A stretch of 64,000 nucleotides of DNA from Verrucomicrobiia bacterium (GTDB lineage Bacteria > Verrucomicrobiota > Verrucomicrobiia > Palsa-1439): contig JBEKFI010000001.1 in NCBI GenBank assembly GCA_050013395.1, positions 1,004 through 65,003 of the forward strand. Direction: 5' to 3'. The number at the start of each line of letters is the position of its first letter. Position 1 is the first letter of the stretch. The notes below the pieces were generated by a model. That model saw only the letters and a list, made by a program, of their open reading frames with translations, was not told the DNA's origin and did no database searches. The position numbers and the translations under genes were made by a program. Shown here in pieces: positions 8,862 through 64,000 of the stretch.

Positions 8862-8942
8862 TTCGCATTGTAGCCGCGAAACTTTTTCGCGGCATCCTCC
8901 CGCGACCCACGCCTCGGCCGCGAAAAAGTTTCGCGGCTACAG
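8862..8942. repeat. REP-like palindrome TGTAGCCGCGAAAC...GTTTCGCGGCTACA
   Basis: Long inverted repeat between the Rieske and cytochrome c genes. The same arm sequence occurs at 43740-43768 and inside hypF at 63874-63935. Confidence 0.7.
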
Positions 8943-16439: not shown

Positions 16440-17053
16440 CAACTTCAACATAATTCGGTTTTGATTTTTTCGATTGTAACTTCGCCATGCGTATCATGCA
16501 ATGGACGATGACTAATAGGAAACTGTTTTTGGAGCGCAGGGGAGCGAGACGGGGTCCGAACAGGGGGGTTATCAAAACGAAAAAGAGAGGCCGGTAACTG
16601 TGATCCTAGAATGTCCTCCGACTCCTGGCCCACGAGGTAACTGTCTCTGCCATGTAGGCGTCGGTGACTAACCGCGTCCATTTCCTCTCCCTGGTCGTGG
16701 TGTATAAACCCCGTGAGGTCGGGACAGCAAGCAGAAAAAGACCAAGAAGACCAAAGCGGGATGACCCGACCGTGCGTTTGCACTGAGGTTTTGGCGGACA
16801 ACTCAGCCGCCTTGAAGAAACCGCCGGGCTGCTTGGAGAAACTCGCGGGCAGTGCGCGGACATCTCGGCGCCATCACCAGCGGAGACACTAACCAATTTT
16901 CGTCGCAGCTTCGTCTGCAATCCGCTATTCGTTTAAGATGTTACCCTGAGTGGAGTGAAGGGTCTCGGTCGTCGGGAGGTTCGGAAACGGCAGAGATTTG
17001 CCGTCACACGACGGACGGCCCGCAGCGGTTTCGCCCGCCACTGGGGGATCAGA

Positions 17054-19645
17054 ATGACAAACAGTAGACAAGTTGCGGCCCGGTCCAATGGACGACTCAT
17101 CATCTTGGCAGTCGGCGCGCTCGGTTTCTCTTCCGTCATTACGCAGTTGGCGTTAATGCGGGAGATGCTGGGAGCGTTTGCGGGCAACGAGATGGCGTTG
17201 GGAATCATTCTCGGCAACTGGCTGCTGTTGACGGGAATCGGCGCGTGGCTCGGCCGGACCAGCAACCGTCTCCGCAATCCACGACTCTTGCTCGTACTCT
17301 TACTCTTGCTCGTCGCTCTCCTGCCGCTGGCGCAGGTGTATCTGCTTCGAACATTGCGCGATGTGGTGTTCGTCCGGGGCGCATTGGTCGGCGTGACTGA
17401 GACGATCCTGGCAAGTTTTGTCCTGTTGTTGCCTTACTGCATCGTGTCCGGATTTCTGCTGACGCTGGCGTGCGCGATTGTGGGAGCGGCGTCCCCGCCG
17501 CGATGTGTAGGGGCCGGTCGCGGCGGGGACGCCGCTCCCACGAGTACAGAGGAAATTGGGGCGTCCGGTATTGGCCGGGTGTATGTCGCGGACAGCGTCG
17601 GCAGCATTGCCGGTGGTGTGCTGTTCAGCTTCGTCCTCGTCCGATGGTTGGATCATTTCGCCATGCTGTATCTGCCGGCCCTGCTGAATCTCATGATGGC
17701 GGGAGTTCTGGCGTGGAACTACAGTGGCGACGAACGAATTGTTGGCCGCGAAGCCGAAGACGCCGCTCGTCGTGAAGCGGCAAAGGCACAAGAAGACGCA
17801 AAAGGAAGCATTGCCTCTTCCGTTTTTGCGACACTTTGCGCCTTTTTGCGGCAATTGATCTGTCGTCGATGGTTGCTCGTTTGTGTTGTGACGGTCATCA
17901 CGCTGGCGGTAGTGGCACTGATGTTCCTCACCGACATGGATGCAGTTTCGACGGCGCGGCAGTTTGCGGGACAGAAGATTGTTTTCAGGAAGAATTCGCC
18001 TTACGGCAAGCTCATCGTGACGGAATCGGCGGGACAATTCAACTTCATCGAGAACGGCCTGCCGATCATCTCGACGCACAACGTCGAGCAGGTGGAAGAA
18101 ACCGTTCACTACGCCATGGCGCAGCGGCCCGACGCGCGCAAGGTGTTGCTGGTGTCGGGCGGCGTGTCGGGAACGGCGAAAGAAATCCTGAAGTACGGTG
18201 TGAGCGAGGTGACCTACGTGGAACTCGACCCGCTCATCATCGAGGCGGGACGGAAGTACCTGCCGGACAGCCTGGCCGACCCGCGGATCAAGGTGGTCAA
18301 CACGGATGGACGGCTGTTTGTGAGAGAGGTAGGGCGCGACCGCCGGGCGCGCCGTGGTCCCGACGAAAGCGGGCGGCCCGGCGGTCCGCCCCTACCGGAA
18401 GTGGGTTGCGATGTGGTGATTGTGGACGTGCTTGCGCCGTCCACATCGCAGATCAACCGGTTCTATACCGCCGAGTTTTTCGGCGAGGTCAAACTAATAT
18501 TGACGCCGGGCGGCGTGCTTTCTCTGTCGCTGGGGCGTTACGAAAACTACGTCAGCAAAGAACTGGCACGAATGCTGGCATCGGCTCATGCGACGTTGAG
18601 GCAATCGTTCCGAAACGTGCTCGTGATTCCGGGCGGACGCGTTTTCTTTCTGGCATCGGATGGCGAACTCTTTCCTGATATTGCGGCACGAATCGAGCAA
18701 CGGCGCATCCCGACGCAGTTGGTGAATCGGCATTACCTCGATGCGATGTTGACGCCCGACCGGATAAGCGATCTGCAGCGGGCGATGGCGCAAACTGCAG
18801 CCGTGAACAGGGATTTCAGCCCGGTCTTATACTATTACCATTTGATGCACTGGATGAGCCAGTTCAAGGTCAGGTTCGGTGTTCTGGAGACGGCGTTGCT
18901 GGTCGCGCTCGCGGTTTATCTGTTCACGATTCGTCCGGTGCCGCTGGCAATCTTCGTGTCGGGATTAGCGGCGTCGGCGCTTGAGGTCGTGTTGTTGCTC
19001 GGTTTCCAGATTCTTTACGGCTCGGTCTATGGGCAATTGGGAATCATCGTCACGATGTTCATGGCAGGGTTGGCGGTCGGAGCGTGGGTGGGAAACCGGG
19101 GCCTGATGCGCAACGACACGAACCCTCACCCTGGCCCCCGGTCGCCTCTGGCGCCGCCTACGGCGGGTAAACCTCTCCCTTCGCGGAAGGGAGAGGGAAA
19201 TTTCTCTCCCACGTCATCGGGGGAGAGGATCAAGGTGAGGGGGCAAGCTGTTCATACCGGAGATTGGGAGGCGATGCGTCTTTTGGCCGTGCTCGCCTTC
19301 GCCATTGCCGGGTTGTCGGTGCTGGTGCCGCTGGTGTTGATGGCGCTGGGACGACTGGGCGGGACGACAACCGGCCTTGTGACGGTGCGGGTGGTGATTG
19401 CTTTGTTGACGTTTGTTCTGGCAATGTTGGTCGGCATGGAGTTTCCAGTCGCTTCTCAAGTGGAGTTTGTCGGTCGTGCCGCCACTGCGTCGCGGTTGTA
19501 CACGGCCGATTTCGTCGGCGCATCTCTGGGTGCGTTGCTGGCGAGCACGTTTCTGATTCCGTTGATCGGCGTGACGGCGGTGTGTCTGCTGACGGCGGGA
19601 CTGAACGTCATCGGCGGAGCGGTCGTTTTGTTGAGAAGACAATAG
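17054..19645 (+). CDS. Spermidine-synthase-like aminopropyltransferase with N- and C-terminal polytopic membrane domains, carrying three in-frame repeat insertions
   Basis: VLLVSGGVSGTAKE...VVIVDV...GGVLSLSLG methyltransferase fold flanked by many TM helices. Confidence 0.75.
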   Translation: MTNSRQVAARSNGRLIILAVGALGFSSVITQLALMREMLGAFAGNEMALGIILGNWLLLTGIGAWLGRTSNRLRNPRLLLVLLLLLVALLPLAQVYLLRTLRDVVFVRGALVGVTETILASFVLLLPYCIVSGFLLTLACAIVGAASPPRCVGAGRGGDAAPTSTEEIGASGIGRVYVADSVGSIAGGVLFSFVLVRWLDHFAMLYLPALLNLMMAGVLAWNYSGDERIVGREAEDAARREAAKAQEDAKGSIASSVFATLCAFLRQLICRRWLLVCVVTVITLAVVALMFLTDMDAVSTARQFAGQKIVFRKNSPYGKLIVTESAGQFNFIENGLPIISTHNVEQVEETVHYAMAQRPDARKVLLVSGGVSGTAKEILKYGVSEVTYVELDPLIIEAGRKYLPDSLADPRIKVVNTDGRLFVREVGRDRRARRGPDESGRPGGPPLPEVGCDVVIVDVLAPSTSQINRFYTAEFFGEVKLILTPGGVLSLSLGRYENYVSKELARMLASAHATLRQSFRNVLVIPGGRVFFLASDGELFPDIAARIEQRRIPTQLVNRHYLDAMLTPDRISDLQRAMAQTAAVNRDFSPVLYYYHLMHWMSQFKVRFGVLETALLVALAVYLFTIRPVPLAIFVSGLAASALEVVLLLGFQILYGSVYGQLGIIVTMFMAGLAVGAWVGNRGLMRNDTNPHPGPRSPLAPPTAGKPLPSRKGEGNFSPTSSGERIKVRGQAVHTGDWEAMRLLAVLAFAIAGLSVLVPLVLMALGRLGGTTTGLVTVRVVIALLTFVLAMLVGMEFPVASQVEFVGRAATASRLYTADFVGASLGALLASTFLIPLIGVTAVCLLTAGLNVIGGAVVLLRRQ
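17481..17540. repeat. Perfect 23-bp inverted repeat with 14-nt loop (60 bp) inside the CDS
   Basis: tgggagcggcgtccccgccgcga / tcgcggcggggacgccgctccca; the length is a multiple of 3. Confidence 0.7.
18328..18396. repeat. GGTAGGGCGCGACC...GGTCCGCCCCTACC palindromic element, 69 bp, in-frame in the CDS
   Basis: Same family as 60779-60848; partial copies at 49338-49376 and 54046-54060. Confidence 0.75.
19140..19244. repeat. Composite NPHP/GEG/GERIKVRG hairpin repeat, 105 bp, in-frame in the CDS
   Basis: gaaccctcaccctgg...cctctcccttcgcggaagggagaggg...ctcccacgtcatcgggggagaggatcaaggtgaggggg. The same modules flank the DUF559 genes. Confidence 0.75.
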
Positions 19646-22492: not shown

Positions 22493-23817
22493 GGGAGAAT
22501 CCGAAATCGGAAATCCGAAGCCGAGCCACAGGCGAGACCTGCGCAGCAAATCCGAAACGGGTTGGGATCAGCCGGCGCGAGGCGATCGGGTACGGCGTTG
22601 CTGGTTTGGTCTGCCTGGCGGGAGCGAAAGGGCTGATCGACTATTTCCGGCGGTTCTTTGAGAGTGAGAGCCCCGCCGACATTTTCAAGGGCGACGCGCC
22701 GAGCGACGAAGTATGGGCGCTCTGGCAAAAGCGCGGTTGGACAAAAGAGGGTTACCACTACCTCAAGCTCGACCGCAACGTGCAGTGCAAGATCTGCCCG
22801 AACAATTGCATCCTCGCGCCCGGCGACCGCAGCCATTGCCGCAACCGGATCAACCGCAACGGCACGCTCCACACGCTGGCTTACGGCAACCCGTGCAGTT
22901 TTCACGTTGACCCGGTCGAGAAGAAACCGCTGTTCCATTTCCTGCCGGGCACCGCGTCGTTTTCGTTGGCGACCGCTGGTTGCGTGTTCCGTTGCCTGAA
23001 TTGCCAGAACTGGGAAATTTCGCAGAAGAAACCCGAGGAGACGAAGGACCCGCGCGGCCCGGAGTTTCGTTTGCGTCCGCCGGTCCCGGCGGCGTTGAGC
23101 ATGGAACAGATGGCGCGGCTGAGCATGTTCCCGGAAGACGTGGTGGCACTGGCCGGTGAACTGCGCTGTCCTTCGATTTCCTACACTTACTCCGAGCCGG
23201 TTGCCTTTTACGAGTACACGTACGACACGTGCAAGCTCGCCCGTGAGAAGAAAATCAGGAACATCATGGTGACGTGCGGCTCGATCGAAGAGCGGCCGCT
23301 CCGCGACCTGGCTCAATACGTGGACGCCGCACATGTTGATCTGAAGGGATTCGATGAGGACGTTTACTGGAAGCTGAACACAGGACGGCTCAAACCGATT
23401 CTCAACACCTTGAAGACGCTTCAGGACATGGGCGTGTGGTTTGAGATCATCAACCTCGTTGTCCCAACCTATACCGACAAACCGGACACAATCGCGCGGA
23501 TGTGTGATTGGCTGGTGGCGAACATCGGTCCGGATCATCCGATTCACTTCTCCCGGTTCCACCCCGCGCACAAACTCGAACACCTGCCACCGACGCCGGT
23601 GGAAACGCTGTTGCAGGCGCGCGCCATCGCGCAAAAGGCCGGCCTGCGCTACGTGTACGTCGGTAACGTCCGCGGCGTGCCCGACGTCGAAACCACGTTC
23701 TGCCCCGGCTGCAAACGCGCCATCATCGAACGCGACGTGTTTGCCATCACGAGCTTCAACATCGAAGCCGGCCACTGCAAGTTCTGCCAGACCAAGATTG
23801 CCGGCGTGTGGTCGTGA
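22474..23817 (+). CDS. AmmeMemoRadiSam system radical SAM enzyme with ~88-aa N-terminal extension containing an RR/hydrophobic (Tat-like or anchor) segment
   Basis: YHYLKLDRNVQCKICPNNC...GTLHTLAYGN and ATAGCVFRCLNCQNW (CxxxCxxC). The N-terminus reads SRREAIGYGVAGLVCLAGAKG. Part of the extension is encoded by a GAAATCCGAAA-type repeat. Confidence 0.75.
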   Translation: MAMDQIGENPKSEIRSRATGETCAANPKRVGISRREAIGYGVAGLVCLAGAKGLIDYFRRFFESESPADIFKGDAPSDEVWALWQKRGWTKEGYHYLKLDRNVQCKICPNNCILAPGDRSHCRNRINRNGTLHTLAYGNPCSFHVDPVEKKPLFHFLPGTASFSLATAGCVFRCLNCQNWEISQKKPEETKDPRGPEFRLRPPVPAALSMEQMARLSMFPEDVVALAGELRCPSISYTYSEPVAFYEYTYDTCKLAREKKIRNIMVTCGSIEERPLRDLAQYVDAAHVDLKGFDEDVYWKLNTGRLKPILNTLKTLQDMGVWFEIINLVVPTYTDKPDTIARMCDWLVANIGPDHPIHFSRFHPAHKLEHLPPTPVETLLQARAIAQKAGLRYVYVGNVRGVPDVETTFCPGCKRAIIERDVFAITSFNIEAGHCKFCQTKIAGVWS

Positions 23818-43554: not shown

Positions 43555-43916
43555 AGCAAAGCGAAGCGGTCAGAGCAAAAGGAAAAGCCCACACACATTT
43601 CTGCCTGCAGGCTTTTGGAAATTAACCCAGCAGTGACCTGCTCTCGCGCAAGCTGGACAGGCACTACCATCGGCACCGCACGCGCCGTGTGCGATCGTCA
43701 CCGTACTCCTTCTGGTGCCGTTGTGTAGCGGGAGGGACGCACCGCGAAATCGTTTCGCGGCTACAAGCCCGACGCCCGGCCATGGATTCGAGCGTGTTGC
43801 GGCGGATGGGATTGGGAATTGACAGGGCGGGCGGAATTTGCTGGAATGCCGCGCGTAGTTGTCACCCCGGCCCGAAGAATAATCGCAAAATACTAATAGC
43901 AGGAGAATATAAAACA

Positions 43917-49337: not shown

Positions 49338-49376
49338 GGTGCGCCGAAGCGGACGGCCCGGCGGTCCGTCCCTACC
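49338..49376. repeat. Partial copy (right arm) of the GGTAGGG palindromic element
   Basis: gcgccgaagcggacggcccggcggtccgtccctacc. Confidence 0.6.
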
Positions 49377-54028: not shown

Positions 54029-54045
54029 ATTCCGTGACGTCGTTG

Positions 54046-54200
54046 GTAGGGCGCGACAGCGTGAAGCGCAGTTGCGATCCCCTCTCCCTCGTGAGGGAGA
54101 GGGTCAGGGTGAGGGTGCCGGCTGCGTTGCGAGAACACCCCCTCACCTCAGTCCTCTCCCCGAGCGCGTCAGCGCCTCGGGGCGATGAGGAGGTTTCTGA
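54046..54200. repeat. Hairpin repeats (partial GGTAGGGCGCGAC, CCCTCTCCCTCGTGAGGGAGAGGG, GTGAGGG, PLTSVLSPS module)
   Basis: Several repeat modules between hdrC and hdrB. Confidence 0.65.
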
Positions 54201-54203
54201 ACC

Positions 54204-55076
54204 ATGAAATTCACCTATTTCCCCGGCTGTTCACTGAAAGGCTCCGGCCGCGCCTACGAGGAATCGCTGTTGGCGGTCTGCAAACAGCTCGGCGTCGAAC
54301 TGGAGGAATTGGACGACTGGAACTGCTGCGGCGCGACCGCTTACATGGCGGTCAGCGAACGCCAGGCCTTCGGGCTGGCCGCGCGCAATCTCGCGCTGGC
54401 GGAACAACAGCCGCACGAACTGCTCGCGCCGTGCAGCGCCTGTTATATGGTGCTGAAGAAAACCCAGAAGTACGTCGCCGAGTATCCGCTGATTGGGCAA
54501 GAGGTGCACGACGCGCTCAACAGGTGCGGACTCAAGTACGCCGGCACGGCCGGAGTCCGTCATCCGCTCGATGTATTGGTCAACGACATCGGCCTCGATG
54601 CGATCAAGAAGCAGGTCAAGATGCCGCTCAAAGGCTTCAAGGTCGCACCGTACTACGGCTGCCAGATCGTGCGGCCATACGCGGACTTCGACGACCAGCA
54701 CAACCCGGTGCTCATGGACAAGCTATTCAAAGCGCTCGGCGCTGAAGTGGTGAAATACCCGCTGAAGACGCGGTGCTGCGGCGGCAGTCTGACCGGTACG
54801 TTGCCGGAAGCCGGTCTGGGACTGAGTTTCCATCTCTTGCGGGAAGCGCAACGCCGTGGCGCGAACGTGCTGGCGACGGTCTGCCCGCTCTGCCAGTTCA
54901 ACCTCGACGCCTACCAGAGGGACATGTCCAGCAAGTACGAGCCGGTGCACATGCCCATCGTTTATTTCACACAGTTGATGGGTTTGGCGTTCGGGTTGGA
55001 CGCGAAAACGCTGGGTCTGCATCGCGGCATTATTTCCATTGAACCGCTATTGAATAAACAAGAGGTAGCAGCATGA
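54204..55076 (+). CDS. hdrB: Heterodisulfide reductase subunit B (two CCG domains)
   Basis: MKFTYFPGCS...CCG motifs. Confidence 0.85.
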   Translation: MKFTYFPGCSLKGSGRAYEESLLAVCKQLGVELEELDDWNCCGATAYMAVSERQAFGLAARNLALAEQQPHELLAPCSACYMVLKKTQKYVAEYPLIGQEVHDALNRCGLKYAGTAGVRHPLDVLVNDIGLDAIKKQVKMPLKGFKVAPYYGCQIVRPYADFDDQHNPVLMDKLFKALGAEVVKYPLKTRCCGGSLTGTLPEAGLGLSFHLLREAQRRGANVLATVCPLCQFNLDAYQRDMSSKYEPVHMPIVYFTQLMGLAFGLDAKTLGLHRGIISIEPLLNKQEVAA

Positions 55077-57061
55077 AAGAGCAATCCGACGGCGACATTC
55101 GCATCGGGTGTTACGTCTGCCATTGCGGCACGAACATAGCCGGGGTGATCAACGTTAAGGCGGTGACAGAGTACGCCGCCAAACTGCCGTGCGTGGTTGT
55201 GTCACGCGACTACAAGTACATGTGCTCCGATCCGGGCCAGGCGCTGATCCAGCAGGACATCAAGGACCATAAGTTGAACCGCGTCGTCGTCGCGTCGTGC
55301 TCACCACTGTTGCACGAGCGCACCTTCCGCAATGCCTTGGAAGGCGGCGGGCTGAATCCGTTCTGTCTCCAGATGGTCAACATCCGCGAGCATGACTCGT
55401 GGGTGCACGAACCGGGCAAACCAGCGACCGAAAAGGCGCGGGCGTTGGTGCGCGCCGCGATCAAGCGCGTTGCGTTGCACAAACCGCTGGAGAAGAAGGA
55501 GACCAAGATTCATCGCGATGTGCTGGTGGTCGGCGGCGGCATTGCCGGGATTCACGCGTCTCTGACTCTGGCCAACGGCGGCATGACCGTTTACCTCGTC
55601 GAACGCGAGGCGACGATCGGCGGGCACATGGCGAAGTTCGACAAGACGTTCCCGACGCTCGACTGCGCAGCGTGCATTCTTACGCCGAAGATGTCGGCCG
55701 TCGGCGAGAACCCGAACATCAAGCTGTGGACCTACTCAGAAGTCGTGAAGGTCGAGGGCTACGTCGGCAACTACAAGGTGACGGTGAAACGCAAGCCGCG
55801 ATATATTATCGAGGATTTGTGCGTCGGCTGCATGAAATGCGTCGAGGCGTGCGTGTACAAGGAGGGAAAGACCGAGGACGACTTCAACGAAGGTCTCTCC
55901 AAGCGCAAACCCGTGTACATGCCGTTCCCGCAGGCGACGCCGTTTTTGGTGCTGTTTGATCCGGAAGCCTGCATCCAGCTCAAGACGGGCAAATGCAAGA
56001 AGACCTGCGTCGAGGTGTGCGATCGCAAGGCGATCAAGTTCGACCAAAAGGAAGAACTTGTCGAGATCAACGTCGGCACGATCATTCTCGCCACTGGTTT
56101 CCAGACGTTCGACGGGAAACGTTTGCCGCAATACGGCTACGGCGTGCATCCAAACGTGTTCTCCGCGATGCAAGTCGAACGCATGGTCAATGCCAGCGGC
56201 CCGACCGAAGGCCACATCACATTGAAGGACGGCGGCAAACCGAAGGCGGTCGGTATCATCCACTGCGTCGGCTCGCGCGACAACCGCACCAACCGCTGGT
56301 GTTCGCGCGTCTGCTGCATGTACTCGATGAAGCTCGCCCACCTTATCAAGCAGCACACTGATGCCGAGGTGTTCAACTTCTACATCGATATCCGCGCGCC
56401 CGGCAAAGGATACGAGGAGTTTTACGAGCGGTTGCAGGAGGAAGGTGTCCATTTCATCCGCGGCCGCGTCGCCGAAGTCACCGACTGGGCGGCGAGGAAA
56501 GAGGAGGAAGGCAGACTCGTGATCCGCGTCGAGGACACGCTTGCCGGTTTCGTTCGGCGTATCCCGGTTGACATGGTTGTTCTGGCGAACGGTCTCGAAC
56601 CGCAAGCCGACTCCCAGGATGTGCGGCGGATGTTCAACATCAGTTGCTCGACCGAAGGCTGGTTCCTGGAGCGCCACCCGAAACTCGCGCCCGTGAACAC
56701 CTTCACCGACGGCATTTTCCTGGCCGGTTGCTGTCAAGGCCCGAAAGACATCCCCGACACGGTCGCCCAAGCGGGTGCGGCCGCGGCGGAGGCGTATGCG
56801 TTGATCAACGCCGGCGTAATCGAGCTTGAACCGAATACGAGCTACGTCGTGGCTGACGATTGCAGCGGATGCAAGACCTGCATCCCGCTTTGCCCGTACA
56901 CGGCGATCAGCCGCGACGAGGTGAAAAAGAAGGCCGTCATCAACGAGGCGTTGTGCAAAGGTTGCGGCGTATGCGTCGCGGCCTGCCCGAGCGGGTCGAT
57001 TTACCAGAACCTGTTCAGCGACGAAGAAATCTTCAGCGAAATCGAAGCGGTCATCGGATGA
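55073..57061 (+). CDS. hdrA: Heterodisulfide reductase subunit A (FAD, multiple [4Fe-4S])
   Basis: VLVVGGGIAGIHAS FAD fold; several Cys clusters. Confidence 0.9.
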   Translation: MKEQSDGDIRIGCYVCHCGTNIAGVINVKAVTEYAAKLPCVVVSRDYKYMCSDPGQALIQQDIKDHKLNRVVVASCSPLLHERTFRNALEGGGLNPFCLQMVNIREHDSWVHEPGKPATEKARALVRAAIKRVALHKPLEKKETKIHRDVLVVGGGIAGIHASLTLANGGMTVYLVEREATIGGHMAKFDKTFPTLDCAACILTPKMSAVGENPNIKLWTYSEVVKVEGYVGNYKVTVKRKPRYIIEDLCVGCMKCVEACVYKEGKTEDDFNEGLSKRKPVYMPFPQATPFLVLFDPEACIQLKTGKCKKTCVEVCDRKAIKFDQKEELVEINVGTIILATGFQTFDGKRLPQYGYGVHPNVFSAMQVERMVNASGPTEGHITLKDGGKPKAVGIIHCVGSRDNRTNRWCSRVCCMYSMKLAHLIKQHTDAEVFNFYIDIRAPGKGYEEFYERLQEEGVHFIRGRVAEVTDWAARKEEEGRLVIRVEDTLAGFVRRIPVDMVVLANGLEPQADSQDVRRMFNISCSTEGWFLERHPKLAPVNTFTDGIFLAGCCQGPKDIPDTVAQAGAAAAEAYALINAGVIELEPNTSYVVADDCSGCKTCIPLCPYTAISRDEVKKKAVINEALCKGCGVCVAACPSGSIYQNLFSDEEIFSEIEAVIG

Positions 57062-58560
57062 GGAAAATCCGAAATCCGAATATCGAAATCCGAAATGAGC
57101 ACGAAGCCCAAATGACAAAACGCGGCAAACAACGGCAGATGAAACCGCAGATGAACACAGATGGACGCGGATTCACAACCTCAGGTTGTCATTCTGAGCG
57201 AAGCAAAGAATCTCAGTCGTCAGGGCATGGTGGCGCGGGCGTCTCGCCTGCGGTTGTTCCAAGCCGGAAAGGAGACTCGAGATGAATGCGTCCGAGTCAG
57301 GCAACCGTAAGAGTCAAGAGTTGCCCCGAGCAACGACGAGGGGGACATGCTAGACGCGGTCAAATGCCGGATTCTTGGTCACGTGCGAGGGGCTGAATAT
57401 GACCGCACTTCCAAATGCGACAGATGTCATACGATGTTGCCAGACCCGGACAAACTTCGAGAAGTCATCAGGAAACCGCCGAATGACGAGGTTCGTAACC
57501 AAGCCATTGCACTATATAAACAGATTGTTTGTGAAGCACCGTATTCCGCGGGTTGCCCTCAGTGTTCGAAGGCGATCAGTGTTTTACGCTTCTTGGTGAC
57601 GGAGGTGACTCGTTGTAAGCACTGTGGCGCAACAATGGTGTTCCTTGAATGCGGATTCCATGATTACGTAGATGCCCTTCCAATTGAAGAAAAGCTCTCG
57701 GATTTCTATCGGGGATTGATTTCTGCAATCCAAGAAATGAGGCGAGAGGAAGATGTAGAGCACGATGGGACTCGCCTCCGTATCGTACCGGCTGATGTCG
57801 TTCAAGCGGTTCAGACGAGAAATGAGGAAGCGCTACTTCGATATCTCGATGTCCATACCGAACTTGAATGGGATCGAAGTCCATTTGGAGAACTCCAAGA
57901 CTTCACACCATTTGACAAAGGCGCGATGATCCGAGCTGTGGCGGCAAGAGAACTCGGGAGATTAAGGTCGCACAGAGGCGTTGATCAATTGAACGCGATA
58001 TTGTTCAACGATCCCAATGCGGAGGTCAAGCGAAGCGCGGCGATTGCTCTAGGCGAAATAAACTACTACCCCGCCGCCTCCGCTCTCATCGCGGCTCTGC
58101 GAAACTGCTCGGAGGATGTTGGTGTCCGAATAATGGCTGCATTAGCGCTTGGTCAGTACTGCGATGAGGAGAGCGAGGCAGCGTTGAAGGCATGTCTTCC
58201 TGCAACTGGCGTCAAAGAAAACGGCGCTCGGGCCAAACTACGCGCTGCAATAGTAGCTGCTCTGAAGTCGCGCGGTGTCGCAAGTGCCGGCATACTCAAG
58301 ATTTGACTAAATGAATGGGTTAACTTCTGACACATGACAATGATACACACAGCCGCAAGCCGGGACGCTTGCACTGCCATGACAACGACGAAACGACAGA
58401 GATGCTTCGACAAGCTCAGCATGACAGTGGTGAGGAATCCGCGTCCATCCGCGTTCATCTGCGGCTTCACCGGCCGTTGTTTCGGTCATTTGAGTTTTCG
58501 TCATTCGGGTTTGTTTCGGATTTCGAATTTCGTGCTTCGGATTTCGCGGCGGCTCGCCGC
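57062..58560. mobile_element. About 1.5-kb non-autonomous element with ~140-bp imperfect inverted terminal repeats carrying one low-GC passenger gene
   Basis: The left terminal repeat (57062-57200) and the reverse complement of the right one (58395-58560) share cgaaatccgaa...gcacgaa...caaatgac...gcagatgaac.cagatggacgcggattc...gtcat.ctgagc...gaagca. The 57200-58300 interior is visibly more AT-rich. Confidence 0.6.
57347..58306 (+). CDS. Passenger gene: N-terminal Cys-rich zinc-ribbon-like region plus C-terminal HEAT (PBS-lyase-type) repeats
   Basis: CxxC...CxxC...CxxC pattern; repeats AEVKRSAAIALGEI and EDVGVRIMAALALGQY. Confidence 0.55.
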   Translation: MLDAVKCRILGHVRGAEYDRTSKCDRCHTMLPDPDKLREVIRKPPNDEVRNQAIALYKQIVCEAPYSAGCPQCSKAISVLRFLVTEVTRCKHCGATMVFLECGFHDYVDALPIEEKLSDFYRGLISAIQEMRREEDVEHDGTRLRIVPADVVQAVQTRNEEALLRYLDVHTELEWDRSPFGELQDFTPFDKGAMIRAVAARELGRLRSHRGVDQLNAILFNDPNAEVKRSAAIALGEINYYPAASALIAALRNCSEDVGVRIMAALALGQYCDEESEAALKACLPATGVKENGARAKLRAAIVAALKSRGVASAGILKI

Positions 58561-58572
58561 TGAGGAGAATAA

Positions 58573-59112
58573 ATGATAAATCAAACCACCGTACAACCCC
58601 AACCTGCCACCAGCACCGCCGCGTTTGAGCCGCGCATCGTCGCGTTCTTCTGCAACTGGTGCACCTACACCGCCGCGGACCTGGCCGGCGTGTCGCGCAT
58701 GAAATACGCGCCCAACGTTCGCATCATCCGCCTGATGTGCTCAGGCCGGCTGGATCCGCAATTCATCATGGCCGCGTTCGCGAAGGGCGCGGACGGCGTG
58801 CTCATCGGCGGCTGCCACCCCGGCGACTGCCACTACGTCGAGGGCAATTATAAGACGCTCCGCCGGATGGATCTCCTGAAGCGGATGTTGAAAGACCTCG
58901 GCATCGAGGAAGACCGCGTCCGCCTCGAATGGATCAGCGCCAGTGAAGGCGACAAGGTCAAGTGGGCCGTCAACGATATTGTCGAGAAAGTCCGTGCGCT
59001 TGGCCCGTTGAACATGCCCGGGAAATTCAAGGATTGGGACAAGGAGATTGAGGAGCTGGCCGGGGAAGTTCAGGCCCAGGATAAAGAGCAAGCACCGGCA
59101 CACGTCGCATGA
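58573..59112 (+). CDS. mvhD: Methyl-viologen-reducing hydrogenase delta subunit
   Basis: FCNWCTY...LMCSGR...GGCHPGDCHY motifs. Confidence 0.85.
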   Translation: MINQTTVQPQPATSTAAFEPRIVAFFCNWCTYTAADLAGVSRMKYAPNVRIIRLMCSGRLDPQFIMAAFAKGADGVLIGGCHPGDCHYVEGNYKTLRRMDLLKRMLKDLGIEEDRVRLEWISASEGDKVKWAVNDIVEKVRALGPLNMPGKFKDWDKEIEELAGEVQAQDKEQAPAHVA

Positions 59113-59729
59113 ACCACGGAATTCACAGGGATCTGTCTCCTCTCCCCCGTCGTACGGGGGAGAGGATCAAGGTGAGGGGGATGGCCAGAGCGCTCCGCCG
59201 CGAGCCGACTTGGGCCGAACGGACACTGTGGCGTCATCTGCGAAATCACCGTTTCTGCGCGTACAAGTTCCGCCGTCAGCATCCCAACGGTCCATACGTA
59301 TTGGACTTCTACTGTGTGTCGGCGAAGCTGGCCATCGAGTTAGATGGTGATCCTCATGGGTATCCAAACCAGAAGAATCACGATGAGTCAAAGGATCGTT
59401 ACCTCGCTCAGCAGGGCATTCGCGTTCTGCGGTTCTGGAACGATGACCTGAGAGAAAACAAAGACGGCGTGCTGGTGACAATTCTGCAAGAACTCGAACA
59501 GCGAACGGAGGAGAACCCTCACCCTGACCCTCTCCCTTACGCTACAAGGGAGAGGGGAGACAATTTGAAGGAGAACCCTCACCCTGACCCCTGGTCGCCC
59601 CTGGCCGCCTCCGGCGCCGCCAAAGGCGGGCAAGCTTTGGCGCCCCGCTGCTGCGGGGGTAACCCTCTCCCTTCCACTGCAAGGGAAAGGGGAAACAATT
59701 TGAAGGAGATCGCGAACTATGTCCACTAA
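59109..59729 (+). CDS. DUF559 endonuclease-domain protein (Vsr-like fold), flanked by NPHP/GERIKVRG hairpin repeats
   Basis: WRHLRNHRFCAYKFRRQHPNGPYVLDFYC...ELDGDPH...VLRFWN. The repeat-derived N-terminus (SPLPRRTGERIKVRG) and C-terminus (NPHPDPLP x3) suggest the native start is near 59184. Confidence 0.7.
   Translation: MNHGIHRDLSPLPRRTGERIKVRGMARALRREPTWAERTLWRHLRNHRFCAYKFRRQHPNGPYVLDFYCVSAKLAIELDGDPHGYPNQKNHDESKDRYLAQQGIRVLRFWNDDLRENKDGVLVTILQELEQRTEENPHPDPLPYATRERGDNLKENPHPDPWSPLAASGAAKGGQALAPRCCGGNPLPSTARERGNNLKEIANYVH
59512..59700. repeat. Three tandem NPHPDPLP/GEG hairpin repeat units at the 3' end of the DUF559 gene
   Basis: gagaaccctcaccctgaccc occurs twice, with ctctcccttacgctacaagggagagggg and ctctcccttccactgcaagggaaagggg hairpins. 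Confidence 0.7.
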
Positions 59730-60720
59730 ACCGAAAATCGCTTTTTATTGGTGTGCGTCTTGCGGCGGTTGCGAAGAATCCGTCGTCGACCTCGCTGAGG
59801 ACATTCTCATGGTGCTCGATGCCGTGGACATCGTGTTGTGGCCCGTCGCGATGGATTTCAAGAAGAAGGACGTCGAGGCGATGCCTGACAAATCCATCGT
59901 GGCGACCTTGCTCAACGGTGCGATCCGTACTTCCGAACAAGAAGAGATGGTGCGCTTGTTGCGCCGCAAAAGCCAGTATCTCATCGCTTACGGTTCCTGC
60001 GCCCACACCGGTGGCATTCCTAGCCTCGCCAATCAGTTCAGCCGCGAGCAAATTATGAAGTACGTCTACGAGGAAGCGCCCACGGTGGTGAACCCCGACA
60101 ACGCAAGCGCTGTCGGGGCAGGCGCTTTGAAGACGCGGCCGGTAACGGAGTTCCGGGACAACGGCCACACTGCCACACTGCCCGTGTTTCGCAACGTGGT
60201 TCGCGCGCTCGACCAGGTGGTGGAGGTGGACTACTACATCCCCGGCTGTCCGCCCACGCCGAAACTGTTGAAAGAGGCAGTGCTGGCGTTGCTCGCGGGC
60301 AAACTGCCGCCGAAAGGCAGCGTGCTCGCCCCCGACATGGCTCTGTGCGAGCAATGCCCGCGCATTGACAGCAAACCGCAGGACCTGAGCCTCACCGAGT
60401 TCAAGCGTCCGCACCAAGTCATCATTGACCCCGACAAATGCCTGCTGGCTCAGGGCCTCGTCTGTATGGGCCCGGCCACGCGGGGCGGCTGCGAAGCGCG
60501 CTGCATCACGGGCAATATGCCGTGCACCGGCTGTTTCGGTCCAACCAGCCGCGTCCAGGACCACGGCGCAAAAATCCTGAGCTATTTGGCCTCAACCGCA
60601 GCCGGCAAAGAAGACAAGGAGATCGAAAAGATATTGGCCGGGATCCCTGATCCTGTCGGCACATTTTATCGTTACGGTTTGGCGAAGTGCCTCCTACGCG
60701 GCCGCGTGGGCGGCCCGTAG
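59719..60720 (+). CDS. mvhG: [NiFe]-hydrogenase small subunit (F420-non-reducing, Mvh-type)
   Basis: FYWCASCGGCEES...GCPP motifs. Confidence 0.85.
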   Translation: MSTKPKIAFYWCASCGGCEESVVDLAEDILMVLDAVDIVLWPVAMDFKKKDVEAMPDKSIVATLLNGAIRTSEQEEMVRLLRRKSQYLIAYGSCAHTGGIPSLANQFSREQIMKYVYEEAPTVVNPDNASAVGAGALKTRPVTEFRDNGHTATLPVFRNVVRALDQVVEVDYYIPGCPPTPKLLKEAVLALLAGKLPPKGSVLAPDMALCEQCPRIDSKPQDLSLTEFKRPHQVIIDPDKCLLAQGLVCMGPATRGGCEARCITGNMPCTGCFGPTSRVQDHGAKILSYLASTAAGKEDKEIEKILAGIPDPVGTFYRYGLAKCLLRGRVGGP

Positions 60721-60935
60721 GAAATCCGAAACCCGAAACAAGCACGAATGACCAAAGTAGCAACGACCAAGACGCGTGGTAGGGCGCGACCGCCGGGCGC
60801 GCCGCTCTTCACAACGGCTTCGGACGGCCCGGCGGTCCGTCCCTATCGTCTCGCGCCTTGTTTGGAGCATTTCCGTCATTCGAATTTCGGATTTGTTTCG
60901 TGCTTCGAATTTCGGATTTCGAGTTTTCCTCTCAT
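60721..60935. mobile_element. MITE-like element: short inverted repeats of the GAAATCCGAAA family flanking a GGTAGGGCGCGACC palindrome
   Basis: Left arm gaaatccgaaacccgaaacaagcacgaatgac; right arm is the reverse complement of cgaaatccgaaattcgaagcacgaaacaaatccgaaattcgaatgac; palindrome core 60779-60848. Confidence 0.6.
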
Positions 60936-60944
60936 GGAGGTTTT

Positions 60945-62471
60945 ATGAACGAATCAGTCAAGCGCATCTTCAACGAAGCCCACAATAATGCCGGCCAGTC
61001 CTACATGACACGGCGGCACGTCGCCATTGACCCGATCACCCGCCTCGAAGGCCATGGCAAGATCGACATCTTCCTGGACCAGAAAGGCGAGGTCGAGCGG
61101 GCATACTTCCAAGTGCCCGAGATGCGCGGGTTCGAGGTGTTTTCCATCGGACGACCGGCCGAAGACATGCCGCAGATCACATCGCGCATTTGCGGCGTCT
61201 GCCCGACAGCGCATCACATGGCGGGAACAAAAGCGCTGGACGATTTGTACAAAGTCGAGCCGACTTCGGCGGCGAAAAAGATCCGCGAGTTGGTGTACAC
61301 CACGTTTATGCTCGAAGACCACGCGTTGCACGTCTACATCCTCGGCGGCCCGGACTTCATCGTGGGTCCGGATGCGCCTCCCGAACTGCGCAACATCGTC
61401 GGCGTGATCCAAAAGGTGGGCCTTGAGATTGGCAAGCGAGTCATCAGCACGCGCCGCCGCTTGCGCGAGTTGATCACGTACCTCGGCGGCAAGGTGATTC
61501 ATCCCGTGCTCGGTCTGCCCGGCGGCGTCGCGAAGGGGATGTCGCCGGCGGACCTGCCGCAGTTCCAGCAACTGGCCAAGGACGGCCTGGATTTTGCGCA
61601 GTTCACGCTGCAGGTCTTCAAGGACATCGTCCTGAAGAATGAAGCTTACGTGAAGCTTATCACGTCGGACACCTACACCCATCGCACCTACTACATGGGC
61701 ATGGTGGACGCGAACAACAAGGTCAACTTCTACGACGGCAAGATTCGCGTCGTCACGCCGGACGGCAAGGAGTTCGCGAAATTCGCCCCGCAACAGTACC
61801 GCGACTTCGTGGCCGAACACGTCGAGCCGTGGAGTTACATGAAGTTCTGCTACTTGAAACCCGTCGGGTGGAACGGTTTCACCGAGGGCGAGAAGAGCGG
61901 CATTTACTCGGTGGCCCCGCTGGCGCGATTGAACGTGTCCGACGGTCTGGCGACGCCGCTGGCCCAGAAGGCGTACGAGGAATTCTACGCGACGCTGGGC
62001 GGTAAACCCGTCCACCACACGCTGGCCAACCACTGGGCGCGCGTCGTCGAGATGCTGTACGCCGCCGAGCGGATGAACGAACTCATCAACGATCCAGAGA
62101 TCACCAGCAAAGACCTGCGGGTCATCCCGACCGCGAAACCCACGGTCGGCATCGGCGTGGTCGAAGCGCCGCGTGGCACGTTGATCCACCAGTACGAGAC
62201 CGACGACAACGGAATCATTCGCAAAGCCAATCTTATCGTCGCGACACAGGGCAATTCTGCCCGCATGGCGATGAGCGTCGAGAAAGCTGCCAAGGGACTG
62301 ATCCACGGTGGTGAGGTGAGCGAGGGATTGCTTAACAAGGTCGAGATGGCCTTCCGTGCGTACGATCCCTGCTTGGGCTGCGCCACGCATGCCATCGGCC
62401 AGACACCGATGATTGTCACGATCCGCGACGGGTCTTCGGGCCGCGTTTTGCGCACGTTGCGGCGCGATTGA
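60945..62471 (+). CDS. mvhA: [NiFe]-hydrogenase large subunit (group 3c-like)
   Basis: RICGVCPTAHH N-terminal and DPCLGCATHA C-terminal Ni-binding motifs. Confidence 0.9.
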   Translation: MNESVKRIFNEAHNNAGQSYMTRRHVAIDPITRLEGHGKIDIFLDQKGEVERAYFQVPEMRGFEVFSIGRPAEDMPQITSRICGVCPTAHHMAGTKALDDLYKVEPTSAAKKIRELVYTTFMLEDHALHVYILGGPDFIVGPDAPPELRNIVGVIQKVGLEIGKRVISTRRRLRELITYLGGKVIHPVLGLPGGVAKGMSPADLPQFQQLAKDGLDFAQFTLQVFKDIVLKNEAYVKLITSDTYTHRTYYMGMVDANNKVNFYDGKIRVVTPDGKEFAKFAPQQYRDFVAEHVEPWSYMKFCYLKPVGWNGFTEGEKSGIYSVAPLARLNVSDGLATPLAQKAYEEFYATLGGKPVHHTLANHWARVVEMLYAAERMNELINDPEITSKDLRVIPTAKPTVGIGVVEAPRGTLIHQYETDDNGIIRKANLIVATQGNSARMAMSVEKAAKGLIHGGEVSEGLLNKVEMAFRAYDPCLGCATHAIGQTPMIVTIRDGSSGRVLRTLRRD

Positions 62472-63296: not shown

Positions 63297-64000
63297 AGAC
63301 GTGCATGCGCGCCAGGATCGTTGGCCGCGTCCAAGGCGTTGGGTTTCGTCCGACCGTTTATCGCTACGCCACGCAACTCGGCCTTGGCGGTTTTGTCTGC
63401 AACGGCCCGCACGGCGTCACGGTCGAAGTCGAAGGCGACGATCTGAAAGTCCGCGCATTCTTTCATCACCTGATCCACGACCCGCCCAAACAGGCAGTGA
63501 TCGCAGACATTCAAAAACAAGTCTTCGCCGAAAAGGGTTACAAGCAATTCGAGGTCATCGAGTCCGAGCCTGAGGGCGACGCGGCCGTGCATATCTCGCC
63601 CGACTTGGCGACGTGCGACGATTGCCTGCGGGAGTTGTTTGATCCTCAGGATCGCCGTCACGGCTATCCGTTCATCAATTGCACGAACTGCGGCCCGCGT
63701 TTCACGATCATCCGCGACTTGCCCTATGATCGTGACAAGACTTCGATGGCCGGTTTCACGATGTGTGCGCCGTGCGAGTATGAGTACCACGATCCGCGCG
63801 ATCGCCGATTCCACGCGCAACCGGACGCTTGCGAGAAGTGCGGGCCGCAACTCGACCTGATTACGCCGGAGGATTGTAGCCGCGAATCCTATTCGCGGCG
63901 GGAGAATGCCCGCGAAGACGCTTCGCGGCTACAATTGATGAGAGTTGTCGATCTTCTTCGACGCGGCGCCATTGTCGCCGTCAAGAGCCTTGGCGGTTAC
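63292..64000 (+). CDS. hypF: Carbamoyltransferase HypF (N-terminal part; runs off the window)
   Basis: Acylphosphatase domain (RVQGVGFRP) and two CxxC...CxxC zinc fingers. The ATG overlaps the hypB stop. Confidence 0.8.
63874..63935. repeat. TGTAGCCGCGAA...TTCGCGGCTACA palindrome embedded in-frame in hypF
   Basis: tgtagccgcgaatcctattcgcggcgggagaatgcccgcgaagacgcttcgcggctacaa lengthens the linker between the second zinc finger and the YrdC-like domain. Confidence 0.55.

Follow-up and report, generated by a model that had tools for sequence, protein, structure and literature searches.

A REP doublet nested in a heptad-repeat hairpin occupies the mvhG|mvhA junction of a Verrucomicrobiia hdr-mvh operon

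A stretch of 64,000 nucleotides from a Verrucomicrobiia contig (JBEKFI010000001.1, positions 1,004 to 65,003; called the window for simplicity) was analyzed around its hdr-mvh operon. Pfam assignments give the gene order hdrC, hdrB, hdrA, an ORF for a HEAT-repeat protein, mvhD, a DUF559 ORF, mvhG, mvhA and hypB. The gene for the hydrogenase small subunit, mvhG (59719..60720, plus strand; Pfam Oxidored_q6, 2.5e-24), terminates with a TAG codon at 60718-60720, and mvhA, which encodes the [NiFe] hydrogenase large subunit (60945..62471, plus strand; Pfam NiFeSe_Hases), starts at 60945, leaving a gap of 224 nt. This gap contains a 200-nt nested hairpin (60721-60920), whose stem begins 0 nt after the mvhG stop codon, and a linker of 24 nt (60921..60944, plus strand) with the mvhA Shine-Dalgarno sequence GGAGG (60936-60940), which lies outside the hairpin and 4 nt upstream of the ATG. 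As a side observation, a weak CCTC..GAGG hairpin within the linker could occlude this GGAGG. Exact-sequence look-up returned no record for MvhA or for the HEAT protein.

Folding of the 231-nt region yielded a single nested hairpin of -101.2 kcal/mol (z -5.55) on the plus strand and -107 kcal/mol (z -6.86) on the minus strand, and 0 of 200 shuffled sequences folded equally well. An earlier note on this DNA had described a MITE-like composite between mvhG and mvhA at 60721-60935 and had suggested that the region be folded. The composite is real: the sequence is as described, the neighboring genes are confirmed by Pfam, fold and word counts go beyond chance, and one nested hairpin of about -100 kcal/mol forms on either strand. 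Its start was placed correctly; its end is at 60920, and what follows is the linker with the ribosome-binding site.

The hairpin is built from an A-rich arm beginning with GAAATCCGAAACCCGAAACAAGCACGAATGACC (60721-60777), which base-pairs with a T-rich arm ending in GTCATTCGAATTTCGGATTTGTTTCGTGCTTCGAATTTCGGATTTC (60848-60920), and from a 70-nt palindrome (60778-60847) enclosed by the two. The left outer arm (60721..60752, plus strand), defined by its sequence, by inverted repeats I2-I4 and by colinearity with six other elements, is a series of A-rich heptads (GAAATCC, GAAACCC, GAAACAA, GCACGAA, then TGAC). Its counterpart, the right outer arm with T-rich heptads up to TTTGGAGCATTTCCGTCATTCGAATTTCGGATTTGTTTCGTGCTTCGAATTTCGGATTTC (60861..60920, plus strand), was delimited by alignment with six other right arms and by its identity with the corresponding arm of a related genome, L002. 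Inside the outer arms lies a middle module defined by the MFE structure, the left half of which (CAAAGTAGCAACGACCAAGACGCGT, 60753..60777, plus strand) pairs with the right half (GTCTCGCGCCTTG, 60848..60860, plus strand) and prolongs the stem to the palindrome. The palindrome consists of a REP unit of the CGC type (GGTAGGGCGCGACCGCCGGGCGCGCCG, 60778..60804, plus strand; exact pattern match, hairpin covariation), a 16-nt spacer that forms the apex of the whole hairpin and has no strand assigned (CTCTTCACAACGGCTT, 60805..60820), and an inverted REP unit of the ACG type (GATAGGGACGGACCGCCGGGCCGTCCG, 60821..60847, minus strand), which matches the pattern with one mismatch that turns its head from GTAG into ATAG. 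It had been given as a 70-bp GGTAGGG...CCCTACC palindrome between short inverted repeats; the size and the flanking arms are right, and the right end reads CCCTATC.

The core of the gap is a pair of GTAG-tagged REP units in REPIN/BIME organization, namely a tail-to-tail CGC/ACG heterodimer. The repeat unit is the 27-nt hairpin GGTAGGG-xyz-GACCGCCGGGC-z'y'x'-CCG with an 8-bp stem (pattern also written GGTAGGGNNNGACCGCCGGGC), and not the 70-nt palindrome; in the GTDB matches listed, its boundaries are sharp and the flanks are random on both sides. The pattern occurs in the window as five units at three sites, compared with 0.02 expected. Self-BLAST and pattern matching place a second full doublet at 18328-18396 (plus strand), where it encodes VGRDRRARRGPDESGRPGGPPLP in frame within a spermidine-synthase-like ORF whose Spermine_synth domain match (aa 382-526) runs across the insert (aa 458-480), and a single unit of the ACG type at 49351-49376 (minus strand) in a long intergenic region. 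Together with the GTDB matches, these copies substantiate the proposal that the inner palindrome represents an independent family nested in the arms. The 30 nt preceding the mvhG stop codon (GGCCGCGTGGGCGGCC) were also considered as a REP and rejected, because a REP would have its GTAG/CTAC head on the opposite side of the palindrome.

Scanning one genome per GTDB species with the string GGTAGGGNSSGACCGCCGGGC retrieved at least 119 stretches with the REP, and among the matches listed almost all come from Verrucomicrobiota or other PVC bacteria, including Opitutaceae, Udaeobacter, Luteolibacter, Pelagicoccus and Nibricoccus as well as Lentisphaerae and Kiritimatiellae. In 118 of 130 sampled units, which comprise nine triplet types, the three unconstrained bases 3' of the core are perfectly Watson-Crick complementary to xyz. 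By stem pair count, 93% of the cells are paired and all three variable pairs have changed on both sides, a score matched by 0 of 500 shuffles, and controls slid along the sequence were 29-52% paired. The 27-mer of REP unit 1 is the commonest unit of the sample (53/130). When partner arms were found by the core alone, 35 of 51 carried the head GGTAGGG, and other heads were GGTGGGG (4/51) and GATAGGG (3/51), each one base off. An inverted partner lies 13-93 nt away for 46 of the 130 sampled units, with spacers that are not conserved; the arms of these 46 doublets are nearly always heterotypic, and CGC/ACG, the type seen in the gap, is the commonest. GTAG is present in four of the five units of the window, the exception being the right unit of the gap doublet, and its loss there indicates that the gap copy may be decaying.

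REP copies flank RAYT genes at three fetched loci of other genomes, two of which are orthologous. In a Verrucomicrobia MAG (L024), an ORF with both HUH and Tyr motifs, enclosed by two inverted REP copies, scores 84.3 bits (cut-off 80) against the NCBIfam model of REP-associated tyrosine transposases (NF047646) and matches Pfam Y1_Tnp weakly; the protein has numerous homologues, several of them named RayT by their sources. L208 shows the same REP-RAYT layout, and in Nibricoccus (L210) a RAYT is located between BIME-like arrays in which the REP (TCG type) alternates with another type of REP. At a further locus (L209), a RAYT of 59% identity is flanked by a related but distinct GTAGGG REP. RAYTs, also named TnpA(REP), are single-copy Y1/HUH transposases that recognize REP hairpins in single-stranded DNA and copy the non-autonomous REPINs to other places in the genome (Nunvar 2010, PMC2817692; Bertels and Rainey 2011, PMC3116915; Ton-Hoang 2012, PMC3333891). 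No RAYT gene was detected in the 64-kb window by tblastn, so that an active cognate transposase in the source organism is an assumption.

GTAG REPs have been described in the PVC superphylum, with Opitutus terrae highly enriched (families GTAG-17 to -20), with sub-families that have alternative complementary stems and form heterodimers, with heads whose TAG acts as a stop codon, and with in-frame intragenic REPs that encode 20-30 residues (Di Nocera 2013, PMC3733652). The locus therefore belongs to a known kind. Neither the unit GGTAGGG-xyz-GACCGCCGGGC nor its peptides are found among the intragenic REP peptides of O. terrae in the supplement of that study (PMC3733652), and the REP of the gap appears to be a further GTAG family, spread over many Verrucomicrobiota and PVC lineages. 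With the known GTAG REP, REPIN and BIME systems it shares the 27-nt imperfect palindrome, the GTAG head, alternative stems, heterodimers with variable spacers, RAYT genes flanked by REPs, and probably also dispersed copies that are mostly intergenic and sometimes in frame; unlike in these systems, a different repeat carries the gap doublet at its apex.

This other repeat, the outer shell, is made up of arrays of degenerate CGAAnnn heptads (such as CGAAATC, CGAAGCA, CGAAACA and CGAATGA), and its arms at 60721-60752 and 60861-60920 are 79-85% complementary and thus form terminal inverted repeats. Across 1.7 Mb of fetched sequence, 17 heptad arrays were counted versus 0 in shuffles. With up to one mismatch allowed, the window contains 15 occurrences of GAAATCCGAAA where 1.5 are expected, and 11 of these fall in the gap or at the two ends of the element at 57062-58560, which contains the HEAT ORF between a left (57062..57125, plus strand) and a right heptad arm (58484..58546, plus strand), both defined by arm alignment. 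Within the window, the similarity between the arms of the gap and those of this element is modest (32 nt at 87.5%, with the order of heptads partly different). Their assignment to one family, as the earlier note had it, is borne out by seven elements, distributed over five junctions: their left arms are colinear and share a consensus of about 45 nt, reaching well past GAAATCCGAAA, and their right arms are related. The elements are located at hdrA|mvhD in the window and in L002 (with HEAT cargo), at mvhG|mvhA in the same two genomes (with the REP doublet in the window and a different core in L002), at hdrC|hdrB and at mvhD|mvhG in L004 (the latter with a 23S_rRNA_IVP cargo), and at mvhD|mvhG in L135, where the copy is free of cargo and its site is not orthologous to the gap. 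Given this colinearity and the cargo-free copy, the similarity of the arms is not confined to low-complexity runs, and copies of both repeats exist outside the locus: REP units elsewhere in the window and in the GTDB scan, and arms at other junctions including that of L135.

All heptad copies start 0-6 nt past a stop codon; from their end to the next ATG there are 10-25 nt, which include a strong Shine-Dalgarno sequence. No direct repeat that could be a target-site duplication brackets 60721-60920. The cargo ORFs scanned encode a HEAT-repeat protein and a 23S_rRNA_IVP protein and no transposases, and no transposase was among the genes called beside the elements in the fetched operon loci. The HEAT ORF was tried as a marker for a mobile cassette and discarded; besides itself it has just seven weak homologues, and the cargo is therefore idiosyncratic. 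No Rfam family matches the heptad arms, and literature searches for the arms, the REP core and the encoded peptide brought up irrelevant papers alone; the outer heptad family is the sole undescribed component of the locus.

The mvhG|mvhA junction was compared in about 70 relatives, most of which have a spacing of -8 to +25 nt. The nearest relatives by DNA are L128 and L129 (91-96% identity), followed by L130, L131 and L125, and in all five mvhG and mvhA overlap by 8 nt (..CAT GAA TGA / ATG AAT GA..), so that the content of the gap is a lineage-specific insertion. The alignment of the window with L128 is broken exactly at 54029-54204, 57057-58623, 59574-59662 and 60701-61011. As the earlier note had proposed, the junctions hdrA|mvhD, mvhD|mvhG and mvhG|mvhA each hold an insert, and each of these is missing in some close relatives; a fourth junction of the window, hdrC|hdrB, also holds a repeat insert of 175 nt. 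The break at mvhG|mvhA takes in the last mvhG codons and the first approximately 22 codons of mvhA. Over about the last four codons, mvhG of the window ends in ..V GGP* versus ..V TSHE* or ..V AAHE* at the empty sites, and the DNA of the junction is remodeled accordingly (..GTG GGC GGC CCG TAG in the window, ..GTG GCG GCT CAT GAA TGA at empty sites). The last 30 nt of mvhG are identical to those of L002 at 29 of 30 positions, and the first approximately 22 codons of mvhA, judged by N-termini and by identity in 60-nt windows, represent an allele (type I) shared with L002, L004 and L126 and unlike that of L128. Since both ends of the break are of the L002/L004/L126 allele type, a recombination patch is suggested, and it is probably in this form that the insertion arrived; L126 combines the type I allele with an empty, overlapping junction.

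L002 carries the same shell at the orthologous site, with a different core and with extra modules, one of them 40 nt long; the left half of the middle module (60753-60777) is absent from it. In this comparison, for which the left side was read by eye, about 47 nt of the right outer arm are identical between the two genomes except for one indel, whereas the flanking genes are about 80% identical. Such identity might result from gene conversion between copies or from selective pressure on the arm. At the same junction, L004 contains an unrelated mosaic of repeats (96 nt), and in the L127 group the space is taken by a small Cys-rich ORF. A junction that is filled differently in each lineage points to a permissive landing site and speaks against a conserved function of its content.

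We consider it probable, at roughly four in five, that the gap is a lineage-specific insertion in which two unrelated repeat families are nested as one hairpin, a selfish or near-neutral REPIN within a heptad shell. Starting from the ancestral 8-nt overlap of mvhG and mvhA, which would couple their translation, the junction was probably exchanged, through homologous recombination, for that of an allele in which the shell was already present. Either before or after this transfer, the REP doublet would have been put at the apex of the shell by single-strand transposition of the RAYT type. That one family was transposed into the other is inferred from the modularity of the composite rather than from a before-and-after pair; a search of the relatives for the shell at mvhG|mvhA with the same middle module and lacking the REP doublet found none. 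The operon would be transcribed through the element, and the RNA is predicted to form a stem-loop of about 200 nt. Coupling by overlap would then be lost, and mvhA would be translated from its own GGAGG outside the hairpin. Because mvhA retains this ribosome-binding site, the element can be tolerated, and most likely it is a selfish or near-neutral passenger, with neutrality taken as the default. A barrier to 3'-exonucleases or a site for RNase III are possible side effects.

REP units of E. coli reportedly stabilize upstream mRNA and reduce translation near the stop codon, and the 23S_rRNA_IVP ORFs of rRNA genes are located within intervening sequences excised by RNase III. A selected intercistronic RNA element, which would set the expression of hdrABC-mvhDG relative to that of mvhA by blocking 3'-exonucleases, by offering RNase III a processing site or through ribosome stalling at the mvhG stop codon, would account for a very stable fold placed immediately behind that codon, for a right arm better conserved with L002 than the flanking genes, for the recurrence of the arm family at stop|Shine-Dalgarno junctions of several lineages, always next to a strong Shine-Dalgarno sequence, and for the same arms around a 23S_rRNA_IVP ORF in L004. 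We nevertheless regard it as unlikely, given that the closest relatives have the 8-nt overlap instead of the element, that the contents of the junction are non-homologous among L002, L004, the L127 group and the window, and that the REP doublet is found in the lineage of the window alone and has one mutated head. The folds also argue against selection at the RNA level, since two of the four operon elements favor the antisense strand and neither stability nor G.U wobble pairs show a consistent sense-strand bias over six elements. Rfam 15 gave no hits at gathering thresholds in the whole window and none at E<=1 in 56900-61100. A different functional role, that of an intrinsic terminator or attenuator separating mvhG from mvhA transcriptionally, is hardly credible. 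The hairpin does have a large GC-rich core and, past its right arm, a short run of T (GAGTTTTCC), but the stem is AU-rich at its base, with only four T after it. A terminator scan of 4.2 kb returned 4 sites against 4.9 expected from shuffled sequence, none of which is the main hairpin, and the gap itself contributes a single site, a 5-bp hairpin that covers the Shine-Dalgarno sequence. Promoter scanning gave nothing above the shuffled expectation and no promoter-like site before mvhA, and mvhG and mvhA encode two subunits of one enzyme that are translationally coupled in the relatives.

The terminal inverted arms and the size of the composite recall a MITE, and REP units elsewhere often adjoin other short repeat modules, as would be expected if the whole 200 nt moved as one unit with the REP doublet as an integral part. 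The two components are, however, found apart: the shell encloses other cores in L002 and L004 and none in L135, the doublet at 18328 has no shell, no second copy of the composite was found in the window or in the 1.7 Mb of fetched loci, and no target-site duplication is evident. Movement as a single MITE is therefore highly improbable, and the description as MITE-like is right in the loose sense of non-autonomous mobile DNA and inaccurate as to mechanism, since REPINs are moved by Y1/HUH transposases acting on hairpins and not by way of terminal inverted repeats and target duplications. Palindromic repeats can also mislead assemblers, and a public ENA contig of another length differs from the window in a 60-nt repeat module at 59531-59590. 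The same contig is 100% identical across the gap, although it may not be an independent assembly, the shell recurs at this site in a different genome, L002, and the reading frames are intact on both sides, which makes a chimeric join at the repeats scarcely conceivable.

The composite of REPIN and heptad shell resembles several known systems in part. MITEs such as the Correia elements, Nezha and Chunjie are likewise small and non-coding, with inverted arms and the potential to fold as RNA; in contrast to these, the outer heptad element is not bracketed by a target-site duplication, no parent insertion sequence or transposase turned up among the genes called beside it in the fetched loci, and its arms are arrays of degenerate heptads. 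Mycobacterial MIRUs are reportedly direct tandem units with small ORFs in intercistronic operon gaps. Like the gap element, they fill such gaps with the upstream stop and the downstream translation start preserved, but they are not long hairpins and have no sequence kinship with it. Rickettsia palindromic elements insert in frame into genes and add 20-30 residues, as does the copy at 18328-18396; they are unrelated in sequence and belong to another phylum, and the copy in the gap is intergenic. The intervening sequences of rRNA with 23S_rRNA_IVP ORFs are cassettes between long inverted repeats with a stem of the RNase III type, and heptad arms bracket a 23S_rRNA_IVP ORF in L004; unlike these, the heptad element resides at a junction of an mRNA operon and not in rRNA, and RNase III processing is hypothetical there.

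As a tentative and rather doubtful extension, the CGAA-heptad hairpin may stand for a kind of cassette, so far undescribed, that occupies operon junctions in Verrucomicrobiia. It would land exactly in the space that separates a stop codon from the following ribosome-binding site, carry cargo such as REP doublets or small ORFs (for HEAT-repeat or 23S-IVP proteins, for instance), spread between lineages by recombination and perhaps, as RNA, undergo processing of the sort seen in rRNA intervening sequences. If so, neighboring cistrons could be uncoupled without polar effects. On the preferred reading of a tolerated REPIN in a heptad shell, the locus is a clear but ordinary case of repeats colonizing the junctions of a tightly packed, coupled energy-metabolism operon that remains unbroken, and it adds to the RAYT-REP system a REP family common to Verrucomicrobiota and PVC genomes. 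For the annotation of metagenome-assembled PVC genomes, it is of practical relevance that these repeats may add to contig breaks and that they yield spurious ORFs and in-frame inserts, recognizable by peptides such as VGRDRRARR.. and GRPGGPxLP.

When window positions 60691-61190 were compared with the corresponding loci fetched from other sequences (L128, L002, L004 and L126), the region around the mvhG-mvhA gap proved to be of mosaic ancestry. The final codons of mvhG and the initial ~22 codons of mvhA (MNESVKRIFNEAHNN..) match the allele type seen in L002, L004 and L126, and the remaining operon of the window is nearest to L128 (MNDPVKQLWNQGQQ..). The mosaic suggests a short recombination tract that would have brought in the gap element. 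In a sister lineage (L127 8754-9000, also L132, L133, L136 and L137) the mvhG-mvhA gap measures 247-265 nt and is filled not by repeats but by a conserved Cys-rich ORF of ~61 aa (..CWEHK..C..DCQHCIVY..), which may be a genuine gene for a small metal-binding protein.

The mvhD-mvhG junction of the window carries a DUF559 ORF (Vsr-like endonuclease fold, 59109-59729), which overlaps both neighboring genes. Its distribution among the relatives is patchy: it is present in the window, in its nearest DNA-level relatives L128 and L129 and in the P0002 contigs, and absent from L130, L131, L002, L126 and L127. In L004 (5832-6339) its place is taken by a 23S_rRNA_IVP ORF (four-helix bundle) framed by CGAA-heptad inverted arms; in the window the same arm family frames both the HEAT ORF and the mvhG-mvhA REP doublet. 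Over 11.5 kb the window and the ENA contig L001 of the same organism are identical save for one 60-nt indel (window 59531-59590, L001 9851-9872), i.e. one additional copy of the hairpin module GGAGAACCCTCACCCTGACCC..AAGGGAGAGGG in the 3' portion of the DUF559 ORF, which is 206 aa versus 186 aa long. Either the indel is a population polymorphism, or the repeat was collapsed in the window or in the contig. At the hdrC-hdrB junction, a 175-nt insert (54029-54204) that L128 does not have includes a truncated REP head (GGTAGGGCGCGAC) and the hairpin module CCCCTCTCCCT..AGGGAGAGGGTCAGGGTGAGGG; the 60-aa ORF called over it is probably spurious.

Repeats of these kinds were also found elsewhere in the window. 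Another heptad-arm fragment with a small embedded palindrome (GAAGCCGAGCCACAGGCGAGACCTGCGCAGC) lies at 22498-22560, just before a gene that carries a twin-arginine-like signal, and this module also flanks the HEAT element and the mvhG-mvhA gap in L002. In an ORF for a spermidine-synthase-like membrane protein (896 aa, 16955-19645), two or more REP doublets are inserted in frame, among them one GTGG-headed (GTGGGAGCGGCGTCCCCGCCGC.., 17480-17541) and one of the GGTAGGG type within the Spermine_synth domain (18328-18396); further low-complexity stretches of this ORF look repeat-derived as well. A second GTAG REP family, GTAGCCGCGAA-N5-TTCGCGGC, gave 9 overlapping matches in a pattern scan of the window (0.05 expected), forming two tail-to-tail doublets and one singlet at 8870-8940, 43741-43764 and 63876-63932.

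In other genomes, REPs were found next to genes for REP-associated tyrosine transposases (RAYTs). REP-RAYT-REP units are present in L024 (6839-7963), with in-frame read-through into a downstream cytochrome-c-like ORF, and in L208 (1001-1594), immediately 3' of an ActD gene. Because they share this arrangement and their RAYT proteins are 75% identical, the two loci look orthologous; if so, the RAYT locus has probably been inherited vertically. A RAYT gene of a Nibricoccus sp. (GCA_047602425.1, L210 650-1980) has BIME-like arrays on either side, in which two REP types, GTAGGGACGGCCAGCCTTGGCCGTCC and GGTAGGGTCGGACCGCCGGGCCGACCG, alternate in opposite orientation with a spacing of ~160-190 nt.
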